In this document: positions 3,001 through 18,000 of the stretch, in pieces
Layout of the letters: every line of letters begins with the position of its first letter
Position numbering within the stretch: the stretch's first letter is position 1
Assembly: GCF_041248615.1 (NCBI RefSeq)
Contig: NZ_CP158426.1
Length of the DNA: 64,000 nucleotides
Strand: one strand, 5' to 3'
Source: Escherichia coli
Lineage (GTDB): Bacteria; Pseudomonadota; Gammaproteobacteria; Enterobacterales; Enterobacteriaceae
Made by a program: the position numbers

Positions 3001-6000
3001 TAAGCCCACCGATTCTTGCGGCGATGATGCTGGTGATGGGCTGGCGCGGGATGTTTATTACCATTGGTGTACTGGGGATTTTTCTCGCCATCGGCTGGTA
3101 TATGCTCTATCGCAACCGCGAGCACGTAGAACTGACTGCCGTTGAACAAGCTTATCTCAATGCAGGTAGCGTCAATGCCCGCCGAGATCCGCTCAGTTTT
3201 GCCGAATGGCGCAGCCTGTTCCGTAACCGCACAATGTGGGGAATGATGCTCGGATTCAGTGGCATCAACTACACTGCGTGGCTGTATCTGGCCTGGCTTC
3301 CTGGTTACCTGCAAACAGCCTATAACCTGGATTTAAAAAGCACAGGGTTGATGGCGGCTATCCCTTTCCTGTTTGGGGCTGCCGGGATGCTGGTCAACGG
3401 TTACGTTACTGACTGGCTGGTCAAAGGGGGAATGGCTCCGATTAAAAGCCGTAAGATCTGCATTATTGCCGGGATGTTCTGTTCTGCCGCCTTTACGCTG
3501 GTCGTACCGCAAGCGACAACATCCATGACGGCGGTTCTGCTGATTGGCATGGCACTGTTCTGTATTCACTTTGCCGGAACATCCTGCTGGGGCTTGATCC
3601 ACGTCGCAGTTGCTTCTCGCATGACGGCGTCGGTGGGCAGTATCCAGAACTTTGCCAGCTTCATCTGCGCCTCTTTTGCGCCGATCATTACTGGTTTTAT
3701 TGTTGATACCACCCACTCATTCCGTCTGGCACTAATCATCTGCGGTTGCGTCACCGCAGCGGGGGCACTGGCGTACATCTTCCTGGTTCGTCAGCCGATC
3801 AACGACCCGCGTAAAGATTAAACTCCCTATGCCCGATAACATTTTGCTTATCGGGCATTTTTATGGCGATTAAAACGTTTCCCAATTCTCGCCGCTATCT
3901 GCCACGGCCATTTTACGCGGCGTAGCTGGCGTCACGGTTTTTACTACAGCCGATGTTTCACGCTGCTGTTGCTGCTGTTGCTGAATCCGGAACACTGCCA
4001 CAGCTTCGGTCAGGCGACTGGCCTGCTCTTCCAGCGCGGCAGCGGCGGCGGCAGATTCTTCCACCAGCGCGGCGTTCTGTTGAGTTACCCGGTCCATCTC
4101 AGCAACCGCTAATCCAACCTGATCGATACCACGGCTCTGCTCATCAGAAGCAGAAGCAATTTCGCCCATAATGTCCGTCACGCGGGTCACGGCACTGACA
4201 ATCTCCGCCATTGTTTCCCCTGCGCTTTCGACCAGCGTAGAGCCAACATCCACTTTCCCCACCGAGTCTTCAATCAGGCTTTTAATTTCACGAGCCGCCT
4301 GGGCGCTGCGCTGGGCCAGATTACGCACTTCTCCCGCGACCACCGCAAAACCGCGCCCTTGCTCACCCGCGCGCGCTGCTTCAACCGCCGCGTTCAAAGC
4401 CAGAATATTGGTCTGGAAGGCAATGCCGTCAATTACGCTGATAATATCGGCGATTTTCTGCGAACTGGTGGAGATATCGCGCATAGTCTGCACCACGTTA
4501 TCCACCACTTTGCCGCCGCGTTGCGCCGTTTCAGAAGCACTTAACGCCAGCTGGCTGGCCTGGCGCGCATTTTCGGCGTTCTGCTTCACCGTTGCGGTCA
4601 GTTGCTCCATGCTGGCTGCCGTCTCTTCCAGCGAAGCGGCCTGTTGCTCGGTGCGCGAAGAGAGATCGTTATTACCGGTGGCGATTTCGCTGGCACCGCT
4701 ATAGATGGCATTGGCCCCGTTGCGCACATCACCGACGGTACGCATCAGCTCTCCCTGCATATGGCGCAAACTCTCTGCCAGTTGCCCCATCTCATTAGAG
4801 CCATCTACCTCAATCGGTTTCACCAGATCGCCGCCTGCAATATGACGAATGCTGTCAATCAGGCGATTCATTGGCGCTACCAACGAGGCTTTAATACCGA
4901 ACCAGACGGCGAAGATGACCGCCAGTACGACGATCATCACGCCCACCAGGATCCACATCGCCTGGCTGTAGGAGGCATTATTATCGCTGACGGCGATATC
5001 ATAGAGCCGATCGTTTTGCTCCATGTAAGCCACATACTGCTTCTCGAAACCGTCCTGATATCCCTGGGTCGGCTGATCAAAGAACTCGTTGATTTTGCCT
5101 GCACCTAACAGTTGGATCAGCTCCGCCAGCGCATTGTGATAAATATCGTAATTACGTTTGATCTCTGCCGCTGCGGCGGTGCTCTGACGCGGGTCACGCG
5201 GCAACGCTTCGTAATCCGCCCAGTTTTTTTCCGCCTGTTTCAGCGAAATACTGGCACTCTGCATCAGCTCAGCAACGGTTGAACCGCTACCAATATTATT
5301 CTGATCCATCATGTAGCGGATACCCGCGCGGTTGAGGGTGTTACGCGTCTGCAACAACGCAACCCAGCTGCCATTCAGCGTGGATTGCTGCTGGCGAATG
5401 GTTTGTAAAACAGTGAAATTTTCTTTGTCATTCTTTAAGGCATTAAAGAACAGACCGCCTGATGTCAGTTGTAAAAGGCCAAAAACGGCCAAAACCAGCA
5501 GTAAGCTGGTCACAATTTTGATACGTTTTAACATGGTTTCTCTTTCCTGTGGACCGATGCAAGATTTTCGGCCTGGAAAGCAAAAACTTTATGAAAAGGT
5601 GTAACCCGCCATCCATGGAAAAACCAGGCGCTGGTTATCAGATATTAAAAAGTTATTCATTATCGCCCGGGATGTCTTCTTGTCGGGAATTACCCAGAGC
5701 AATAAATTCCTCTAACAGATGGGTTAACTGTTGCATTTTCTCGGCAGTAAACTGAGCTTCAATCTGCCGATAGGCTTCTTCAATCTGTGTCTGAGCGCGG
5801 TTATACAGGGCCTGCCCCTCTTTGGTCAGCGAGATATAGAGCTTCCGCTGATCATTGATCGGCTTTAATCGCAACACTAAACCGTCGCGTTCCATCCGCG
5901 TGAGGATCCCGGTCAGGCTTGGGCGCAAAATGCAGGCGCGATACGCCAGATCGTGAAAATCCATTGATGGGCTTTCCGCCAGAATACGCACGATGCGCCA

Positions 6001-15000: not shown

Positions 15001-18000
15001 CTATGGCTGGATGGGCCGTACCCCAGACTACAAAGCCGCTTTCGGTTGCGCACTGGGCGCGAATCCGGGCTTTTACGGTCAGTTCGAGCAGAACGCCCGT
15101 AACTGGTACACCCGTATTCAGGAAACTGGCCTCTACTTTAACCACGCGATTGTTAACCCACCGATCGATCGTCATTTGCCGACCGATAAAGTGAAAGACG
15201 TTTACATCAAGCTGGAAAAAGAGACTGACGCCGGGATTATCGTCAGCGGTGCGAAAGTGGTTGCCACCAACTCGGCGCTGACTCACTACAACATGATTGG
15301 CTTCGGCTCGGCACAAGTGATGGGCGAAAACCCGGACTTCGCACTGATGTTCGTTGCGCCAATGGATGCCGATGGCGTGAAATTAATCTCCCGCGCCTCT
15401 TATGAGATGGTCGCGGGTGCTACCGGCTCGCCGTACGACTACCCGCTCTCCAGCCGCTTCGATGAGAACGATGCGATTCTGGTGATGGATAACGTGCTGA
15501 TCCCATGGGAAAACGTGCTGATCTACCGCGATTTTGATCGCTGCCGTCGCTGGACGATGGAAGGCGGTTTCGCCCGTATGTATCCGCTGCAAGCCTGTGT
15601 GCGCCTGGCAGTGAAACTCGACTTCATTACGGCACTGCTGAAAAAATCACTCGAATGTACCGGCACCCTGGAGTTCCGTGGTGTGCAGGCCGATCTCGGT
15701 GAAGTGGTGGCGTGGCGCAACACCTTCTGGGCATTGAGTGACTCGATGTGTTCAGAAGCGACGCCGTGGGTCAACGGGGCTTATTTACCGGATCATGCCG
15801 CACTGCAAACCTATCGCGTACTGGCACCAATGGCCTATGCGAAGATCAAAAACATTATCGAACGCAACGTTACCAGTGGCCTGATCTATCTCCCTTCCAG
15901 TGCCCGTGACCTGAACAATCCGCAGATCGACCAGTATCTGGCGAAGTATGTGCGCGGTTCGAATGGTATGGATCACGTCCAGCGCATCAAGATCCTCAAA
16001 CTGATGTGGGACGCCATTGGCAGCGAGTTTGGTGGTCGTCACGAACTGTATGAAATCAACTACTCCGGTAGCCAGGATGAGATTCGCCTGCAATGTCTGC
16101 GCCAGGCACAAAGCTCCGGCAATATGGACAAGATGATGGCGATGGTTGATCGCTGCCTGTCGGAATACGACCAGAACGGCTGGACTGTGCCACACCTGCA
16201 CAACAACGACGATATCAACATGCTGGATAAGCTGCTGAAATAACGCAGCAGGAGGTTAAGATGCAATTAGATGAACAACGCCAGCGCTTTCGTGACGCAA
16301 TGGCCAGCCTGTCGGCAGCGGTAAATATTATCACCACCGAGGGCGACGCCGGACAATGCGGGATTACGGCAACGGCTGTCTGCTCGGTCACGGACACACC
16401 ACCGTCGCTGATGGTGTGCATTAACGCCAACAGTGCGATGAACCCGGTTTTTCAGGGCAACGGCAAGTTGTGCGTCAACGTCCTCAACCATGAGCAGGAA
16501 CTGATGGCACGCCACTTCGCGGGCATGACAGGCATGGCGATGGAAGAGCGTTTTAGCCTCTCATGCTGGCAAAAAGGTCCGCTGGCGCAGCCGGTGCTAA
16601 AAGGTTCGCTGGCCAGTCTTGAAGGTGAGATCCGCGATGTGCAGGCAATTGGCACACATCTGGTGTATCTGGTGGAGATTAAAAACATCATCCTCAGTGC
16701 AGAAGGTCACGGACTTATCTACTTTAAACGCCGTTTCCATCCGGTGATGCTGGAAATGGAAGCTGCGATTTAAGCTCCAGCCCCTTCACGCATTCGTCGA
16801 AGGGGCATTTTTATTGTGATCTCAATCACATATCCACCCGATGAATAATTCTTGCCCAACCGCTCACCGCCATTCCTGACCGCTTACATCCCTAAAATAA
16901 CCACTCAGTTATTTACCTTACTTTACGCGCGCGTAACTCTGGCAACATCACTGCAGGATAGCGGTCAATTTACCTCCTCAAACGCAACGCAAACCTAGAA
17001 CGGCTTCGGCCTATGATTAACAAATTACTCTATGGATTTTGGTTTGCAGGAAGGCAGCAAGTGAGTGAATCCCCGGGAGCTTACAACAGTAAGTGACAGG
17101 GGTGAACGAACGCAGCTGCCGCACCTGTAAGCCAAAAGACGACGAGTAAAATGCCAGGTTTTACTATGGATACGAAAAAACTATTCAAGCACATACCCTG
17201 GGTGATTCTCGGAATCATCGGTGCATTCTGCCTCGCGGTAGTTGCATTACGTCGGGGGGAGCACGTCAGCGCCCTGTGGATCGTGGTCGCCTCTGTGTCG
17301 GTGTATCTGGTGGCTTATCGCTACTACAGTCTGTACATCGCCCAGAAGGTAATGAAACTCGACCCCACGCGCGCGACGCCTGCGGTTATTAACAACGACG
17401 GTCTGAACTACGTTCCGACCAACCGTTACGTGTTGTTTGGTCACCACTTCGCCGCTATCGCCGGTGCTGGTCCGCTGGTTGGTCCGGTTCTCGCCGCGCA
17501 GATGGGCTACCTGCCTGGCACGCTGTGGCTGCTGGCGGGGGTCGTGCTGGCCGGTGCAGTACAGGACTTTATGGTGCTGTTTATCTCCTCTCGCCGTAAC
17601 GGCGCATCTCTCGGTGAGATGATCAAAGAAGAGATGGGACCAGTACCGGGGACTATCGCGCTGTTTGGCTGTTTCTTAATCATGATCATCATCCTCGCCG
17701 TTCTGGCGCTGATTGTGGTTAAAGCCCTGGCCGAAAGTCCGTGGGGTGTCTTCACCGTTTGCTCAACCGTACCGATTGCGCTGTTTATGGGTATCTACAT
17801 GCGCTTTATCCGTCCGGGGCGTGTGGGTGAAGTTTCTGTCATTGGTATCGTGCTGCTGGTTGCCTCTATCTACTTCGGTGGCGTGATTGCACACGATCCG
17901 TACTGGGGTCCGGCACTGACCTTTAAAGACACCACCATTACCTTCGCGCTGATTGGCTATGCGTTTGTTTCCGCACTGCTGCCAGTGTGGCTAATCCTCG

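Follow-up and report, generated by a model that had tools for sequence, protein, structure and literature searches.

A complete hpa gene cluster between tsr and btsT in Escherichia coli, carrying a divergent hpaF allele

The 64,000-base stretch of Escherichia coli DNA analyzed here (contig NZ_CP158426.1; hereafter, the window) contains the hpa genes for the catabolism of 4-hydroxyphenylacetate (4-HPA), which lie between tsr and btsT. It is very probable that this cluster is complete and intact at its normal tsr–btsT site and functional as predicted, and that it represents an ancestral enterobacterial locus, kept in about 38% of E. coli and lost from K-12-like and other lineages, rather than a recently inserted mobile island. 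The cluster is an already known system and involves no new mechanism; the finding is accurate and ordinary. The window matches the chromosome of the E. coli isolate NRZ14408 (NZ_LT599825.1) with 100% identity over its entire length; a literature search on this isolate returned neither a phylogroup nor a sequence type.

According to the list of open reading frames and to RefSeq annotation of the identical record, eleven hpa genes occupy 5653–16773, with hpaR on the minus strand followed by hpaG-E-D-F-H-I, hpaX-A, and hpaB-C on the plus strand. Position 5653 is the final base of the hpaR stop codon, and position 16773 is the final base of the hpaC stop codon. The cluster is flanked by tsr (3870–5534, minus strand) on the left and btsT (yjiY; 17166–19316, plus strand) on the right, and the products of the two flanking genes were recognized by the serine chemoreceptor and CstA/BtsT models, respectively. 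All eleven hpa products gave full-length matches to NCBIfam equivalog models, with scores over the curated cut-offs, as follows.

5653–6099, minus strand: hpaR, MarR-family repressor of the meta operon; TIGR02337 HpaR equivalog, 201 bits against a cut-off of 121
6371–7660, plus strand: hpaG, bifunctional 5-oxopent-3-ene-1,2,5-tricarboxylate (OPET) decarboxylase and 2-hydroxyhepta-2,4-diene-1,7-dioate (HHDD) isomerase; NF011750, 975 bits against 811
7657–9123, plus strand: hpaE, 5-carboxymethyl-2-hydroxymuconate semialdehyde (CHMS) dehydrogenase; TIGR02299, 739 bits against 638
9125–9976, plus strand: hpaD, homoprotocatechuate 2,3-dioxygenase; TIGR02298, 550 bits against 316
9986–10366, plus strand: hpaF, 5-carboxymethyl-2-hydroxymuconate (CHM) isomerase, "B-type" allele; NF011605, 263.5 bits against 215
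10434–11237, plus strand: hpaH, 2-oxo-hept-4-ene-1,7-dioate hydratase; TIGR02312, 465 bits against 351.5
11248–12036, plus strand: hpaI, 4-hydroxy-2-oxoheptanedioate aldolase; TIGR02311, 434 bits against 369
12154–13530, plus strand: hpaX, major facilitator superfamily (MFS) 4-HPA permease; TIGR02332, 893 bits against 615
13540–14430, plus strand: hpaA, AraC-family activator of hpaBC; TIGR02297, 390 bits against 275
14681–16243, plus strand: hpaB, oxygenase component of 4-HPA 3-monooxygenase; TIGR02310, 1110 bits against 885
16261–16773, plus strand: hpaC, flavin reductase component; NF012030, 383 bits against 315

The initial annotation had described a complete cluster in this interval, containing all eleven genes and both regulators, hpaR and hpaA. 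Its coordinates proved exact, the flanking genes were confirmed, and every product passed its equivalog model from end to end. In addition, solved structures nearly identical to HpaG (1GTT), HpaB (6QYH), HpaI (2V5J and 4B5X), and HpaH (2EB4) are present in the Protein Data Bank. The match of 1GTT to HpaG extends over the full length (E = 1.8e-291), as do the matches of 6QYH to HpaB and 2EB4 to HpaH.

The integrity of the cluster was assessed against E. coli W (NC_017635.1), the source of the characterized hpa cluster, by aligning the region from tsr to btsT. The hpa region of this strain (ATCC 9637/11105; Prieto et al. 1996), located at 4841054–4852274, resembles that of the window: its 11 genes are arranged identically, in order and in orientation, at the tsr–btsT site. 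All 13 genes from tsr to btsT agree with their E. coli W counterparts in length, start codon, and stop position and contain no internal stops, and no frameshift or disruption, the defect named in the initial annotation as the one to look for, was found in any hpa gene. The identity between the two sequences is 94–100% in nearly every 200-bp bin and 74.5–82.5% across 10000–10400, and the outer hpa genes share 97–99% nucleotide identity. Outside the stretch of low identity, the cluster as a whole is 96–99% identical to E. coli W.

At the protein level, HpaR, HpaE, HpaD, HpaH, HpaA, and HpaB show 100% identity to their E. coli W counterparts, and one to three substitutions are present in each of HpaG, HpaI, HpaX, and HpaC. 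These substitutions were checked against orthologs from up to 72 other species. The substituted positions, including both of those in HpaG, vary naturally among the orthologs, with the exception of L8Q in HpaC (codon 16282–16284), which is the sole change in that protein. Moreover, an HpaC protein identical to this one was seen on 750 contigs, and for HpaG and HpaF the corresponding number is at least 1000; these are therefore established alleles rather than private lesions. The idea that the substitutions are private damaging mutations was rejected for all but HpaC L8Q, since the positions are variable and the exact proteins are widespread. Residue 379 of HpaB is an arginine, the residue required for the use of 3-hydroxyphenylacetate (3-HPA) (PMC7201708).

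The probable mode of action of the cluster was deduced from its near-identity to the characterized genes of E. coli W, B, and C, with the roles of the individual products taken from published work (PMC7180172, PMC7201708). HpaX would import 3- or 4-HPA, and the AraC-type activator HpaA, with the inducer present, would switch on hpaBC. HpaB, using reduced flavin supplied by HpaC, would then hydroxylate the substrate to 3,4-dihydroxyphenylacetate (homoprotocatechuate). The MarR-type repressor HpaR, which is expected to control hpaGEDFHI as well as its own gene, would then release the hpaGEDFHI operon, allowing HpaD to open the ring by extradiol (meta) cleavage and HpaE, HpaF, HpaG, HpaH, and HpaI to convert the cleavage product into pyruvate and succinic semialdehyde. 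The hpc genes of E. coli C (Roper et al. 1993) encode the same set of enzymes for the same pathway. Given the near-identity to the characterized E. coli hpa genes, a strain carrying the window should grow on both 3-HPA and 4-HPA as sole carbon sources. If the cluster works, the predicted trait is the use of two gut products of tyrosine and flavonoid breakdown.

Two intergenic regions are relevant to the control of this pathway.

6100–6370, no strand assigned: divergent hpaR/hpaG control region, with candidate HpaR operators from a repeat search
14431–14680, plus strand: hpaA–hpaB spacer, predicted hpaBC promoter region; 250 bp as in E. coli W, with 4 differences

The hpaR–hpaG spacer contains a perfect palindrome, TAATCATTAA-CATA-TTAATGATTA, at 6322–6345, with 25 bp separating it from hpaG downstream. 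Near hpaR, at 6123–6146, the spacer contains a related site. We take these two sites to be candidate HpaR operators (cf. Galan et al. 2003). The hpaA–hpaB spacer has been described as serving as the promoter region of hpaBC (PMC7180172). A consensus promoter and terminator scan of 5400–17300 detected fewer sites than in shuffled sequence and missed both border hairpins, and a simple sigma-70 scan is uninformative for this region.

Two differences from E. coli W speak against the prediction that the cluster is functional. The position changed by HpaC L8Q is occupied by leucine in 22 of 22 orthologs, and the hpaR–hpaG spacer, although of the same length, differs at 19 of 271 positions (93% identity), making it the most diverged segment outside the repetitive extragenic palindromic (REP) sequences. 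Through either of these changes, the cluster could be structurally complete yet fail to work in this strain. Intact reading frames do not guarantee the phenotype, as a single change in HpaB, R379C in REL606, abolishes the use of 3-HPA (PMC7201708). However, we regard such a failure as highly improbable. The HpaC variant is one of the established alleles noted above, and HpaB alone carried out hydroxylation in K-12 without HpaC (PMC7201708). Within the hpaR–hpaG spacer, the differences are concentrated centrally, whereas the operator-like palindrome and the related site match E. coli W exactly, and the entire hpaA–hpaB region is conserved. Furthermore, the rate of nonsynonymous substitution (dN) relative to E. 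coli W is close to zero throughout the cluster, as purifying selection would predict. The favored reading is still that of a working cluster.

The distribution of the cluster was determined in 5,426 complete E. coli genomes, in which it was counted where at least 80% was held in one place. The cluster was found in 2019 of these genomes and hpaF in 2071 (about 38%), with roughly 50 partial clusters. It occupies the same tsr–btsT site in E. coli W, in the E. coli B derivative B-RalR (NZ_CP117043.1), and in ATCC 8739 (NC_010468.1). B-RalR and ATCC 8739 share their HpaF protein with the window (WP_001119872.1), but the accessions of their HpaG, HpaX, and HpaC differ. Only 12 records in the collection are at least 99% identical to the window across the entire cluster.

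In K-12 MG1655, tsr adjoins btsT at a distance of 377 bp without any hpa genes, consistent with the initial claim that the cluster is absent from K-12 at this junction. That the cluster is known from E. coli B, C, and W, as also claimed, is supported by the genomes of E. coli W and the B derivative and, for all three strains, by the literature. Growth on 3- and 4-HPA is a trait of strains B, C, and W that K-12 lacks (PMC7201708, PMC7180172), and phenotype arrays likewise showed that p-hydroxyphenylacetate is used by B and not by K-12 (PMC3446290). Among avian isolates, hpaB was present in all those of phylogroup C and absent from those of B2 and G, with matching growth phenotypes, and K-12 as well as phylogroup B2 and G strains cannot use hydroxyphenylacetates (PMC12444784). 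The presence of the hpa cluster can serve as a lineage marker.

The origin of the cluster was examined by a synteny scan of one genome per species that yielded at least 120 loci, with Salmonella and most Citrobacter species lying outside the sample. Among the loci listed, the order hpaR / hpaG-E-D-F-H-I / hpaX-A / hpaB-C is conserved across Enterobacterales. On the left, tsr adjoins hpaR in at least three Pseudocitrobacter and at least three Enterobacter species. Similarly, on the right, btsT (with yjiA) adjoins hpaC in Enterobacter cloacae, Citrobacter sp. R56, Klebsiella spallanzanii, and K. michiganensis. The hpa genes of other Enterobacterales, including Enterobacter, Klebsiella, Citrobacter, Pseudocitrobacter, Serratia, and Yersinia, keep the same order with 72–88% nucleotide identity for most genes, and in some other genera hpaG is split, an additional aldehyde dehydrogenase paralog is present, or hpaA is missing (PMC7180172). 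The region also lacks the hallmarks of mobility. No mobility gene is annotated by RefSeq in or beside the cluster, the tRNA scan found no tRNA at the hpa region, and no direct repeat or target-site duplication of at least 9 bp was present at the borders. The two borders likewise share no direct k-mer of at least 8 bases, and the sole match between them was one inverted 8-mer, consistent with chance. Together with the tsr and btsT adjacencies in other genera, this absence of mobility hallmarks makes loss in K-12 likelier than insertion. Most likely, the tsr–hpa–btsT arrangement predates E. coli and the cluster was lost from K-12, and such a loss has likewise been suggested before (PMC7201708).

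The comparison of the junctions with K-12 supplies further detail. Homology to K-12 extends through tsr to 5595 and returns near 16860, and between these points the 11.26 kb found here is replaced in K-12 by 133 bp of unrelated sequence. Two features lie at or near the left border.

5565–5591, minus strand: tsr sigma-28-type promoter, TAAAGTTT-N11-GCCGAAAA, read from the sequence; left edge of the K-12-shared sequence
5619–5636, minus strand: weak hairpin AACCAG-CGC-CUGGUU followed by UUU, a possible hpaR terminator; the 66-nt fold has z = −0.5, not better than shuffles, and was not flagged by the terminator scan

The break at 5595/5596 is located directly upstream of the candidate tsr promoter, for which we assumed the sigma-28 (FliA) promoter consensus. 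Three fillings of the tsr–btsT junction diverge at this same base, namely, the 11.26-kb hpa cluster, the 133 bp of K-12, and about 0.8 kb in strain ERL03-1416. A 180-amino acid open reading frame in the ERL03-1416 filling had no significant Pfam match.

An alternative history is that hpa is a horizontally acquired genomic island inserted at the tsr/btsT junction, with K-12 retaining the ancestral empty site. The cluster is missing from about 62% of the complete E. coli genomes, and its GC content is 54.3%, as opposed to 49.8% for the entire window, both of which would fit such an insertion. Two points also tell against a purely ancestral locus. First, each of the loci in the synteny scan reaches just one flank. 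Second, in the comparison of Pseudocitrobacter with E. coli, hpaG–hpaI are 87–98% identical (92–97.5% for hpaE, hpaD, and hpaH), whereas the adjacent tsr, hpaR, and hpaX are only 79–83% identical. This similarity, far over that of the flanking genes, indicates that DNA crossed genus boundaries and that the core of the meta operon was probably exchanged between Escherichia and Pseudocitrobacter, in either direction, in which case parts of the cluster were horizontally transferred. Nevertheless, insertion of the whole cluster as an island is unlikely. The flanking adjacencies recur in four other genera, and the tRNA, mobility gene, and border repeats that might accompany an island were not found. 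In addition, the GC content of the cluster (51–60% per kb) is similar to, and no higher than, that of tsr (57%) and btsT (55–58%), and the "empty" K-12 site is occupied by unrelated sequence instead of being a clean junction. The published preference for loss points the same way. The initial description of the cluster as a known, accessory, and non-novel metabolic island is therefore retained except for the word "island," because mobility hallmarks are lacking and the flanks are conserved across genera; the cluster is best treated as an ancestral locus prone to loss.

The region of lowest identity to E. coli W, which is the single surprise in the cluster, corresponds to hpaF. The mismatch map delimits a divergent patch of about 410 bp (approximately 9980–10391), which takes in the hpaD–hpaF spacer, the entire hpaF gene, and the beginning of the REP-containing spacer that follows. 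Within it, hpaF shares 80.05% nucleotide identity with its E. coli W counterpart, and 20 of 126 residues differ. The synonymous substitution rate (dS) is 1.15 and dN is 0.093 for hpaF, compared with dS values of 0.03–0.15 for the other genes, the highest of which are found beside hpaF. The 2071 hpaF-positive genomes fall into two classes of roughly equal size with respect to the window allele: 1083 are at least 95% identical, 987 are 80–90% identical, and one is 90–95% identical. The ratio dN/dS between the allele classes is about 0.08, with both under purifying selection.

The N-terminal proline is retained in both alleles. The E. coli W allele matches the crystallized CHM isomerase 1OTG, and 1OTG aligns with the window HpaF over all 125 residues (E = 1e-70); we take the source of 1OTG to be E. 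coli C. The window allele passes the equivalog model and is that of E. coli B, represented here by B-RalR. Strains of E. coli B grow on 4-HPA (PMC3446290, PMC7201708).

The relatives of the two alleles differ. The W-type hpaF shares 97.9% identity with a Pseudocitrobacter metagenome-assembled genome and about 93% with P. vendiensis and P. faecalis. The window-type hpaF has no relative above about 82% outside Escherichia among the loci listed, is 96% identical to the gene in a divergent "E. coli" species representative, and has an E. fergusonii protein within the 90% cluster of its product. Tentatively, hpaF may represent a long-standing and sharply bounded two-allele polymorphism within an otherwise nearly uniform operon, its two classes being as divergent as different genera, although we hold this view with rather little confidence. 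Such a dimorphism could reflect balancing selection on two variants of CHM isomerase or repeated gene conversion between genera. No earlier description of hpaF allelic divergence was found in the searchable literature, which lacked the primary hpa papers. The dimorphism is a minor point of population genetics and might provide a small case study of inter-genus recombination in a conserved operon.

The remaining features of the cluster are hairpins and repeats. The border hairpins were assessed by direct folding in comparison with shuffled sequences.

10385–10414, no strand assigned: single REP-like palindrome in the hpaF–hpaH spacer, forming the hairpin GCCGGATG...CATCCGGC
12038–12108, no strand assigned: inverted REP-like pair (BIME-like) in the hpaI–hpaX spacer, at the end of the meta operon; pattern match at 12079–12108, with 0 expected by chance; spacer fold of −34.8 kcal/mol, z = −3.9
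16780–16815, plus strand: intrinsic terminator downstream of hpaC, in which AUUUUUAUU follows a GC-rich hairpin; −22.2 kcal/mol, z = −5.0 (0 of 200 shuffled sequences folded equally well); sequence unchanged in E. coli W
17024–17152, no strand assigned: ERIC/IRU-type imperfect palindrome of about 129 bp in the btsT 5′ leader; fold of −61.7 kcal/mol, z = −7.5

The strong hairpin and U-run directly after hpaC confirm the terminator that had been proposed as a boundary of the cluster. By contrast, the proposal that REP elements bound the cluster was not upheld. The full REP pattern and fuzzy core motifs gave no REP at the outer borders (5535–5652 and 16774–17165), and REP-like sequences are internal only, at the two positions given above; a 10-nt REP "tail" motif was too noisy for use. 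Both spacers with REP-like sequences are shorter than in E. coli W. The hpaF–hpaH spacer (10367–10433) has 67 bp with one REP compared with 110 bp with two in E. coli W, and the hpaI–hpaX spacer (12037–12153) has 117 bp compared with 174 bp.

The palindrome in the btsT leader separates the promoter region of btsT from its start codon. K-12 lacks this copy, and E. coli W has the same element as well as the same terminator after hpaC. Sequences of this kind occur at a median of nine places per genome in 5425 of 5426 E. coli genomes, and the palindrome is therefore an ERIC/IRU-type element, not a REP; the name ERIC/IRU follows the consensus of this repeat family, an imperfect palindrome of about 127 bp with many dispersed intergenic copies. 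Copies at least 95% identical to the element were found in 2060 genomes, essentially the hpa-positive set. The element is linked to the hpa haplotype despite about 160 bp of K-12-shared sequence between them.

Elsewhere in the window, two genes have no annotated equivalent at the corresponding site of E. coli W. The gene at 39628–41646 encodes a 672-amino acid pentapeptide-repeat protein (corresponding E. coli W position, yjiL–yjiK), and iatD at 44205–49445 encodes a 1746-amino acid inverse autotransporter (corresponding E. coli W position, yjiJ–kptA). The immigration-control region at 20605–30021 differs from that of K-12, which has mrr and EcoKI at this site. It contains a DUF262 gene, located where the GC content is low (33% at 21001–22000), type I hsdR, hsdM, and hsdS genes of the EcoAI family, symE, and a gene for a GmrSD-domain protein. 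ATCC 8739 resembles the window in this downstream region as well, with a DUF262 gene, type I restriction–modification genes, symE, and a GmrSD-domain gene, in a similar arrangement that is disrupted by IS3. Rfam and tRNA scans found nothing inside the hpa cluster, and their sole match in the window was SymR, the antisense RNA of symE, at 28399–28475.

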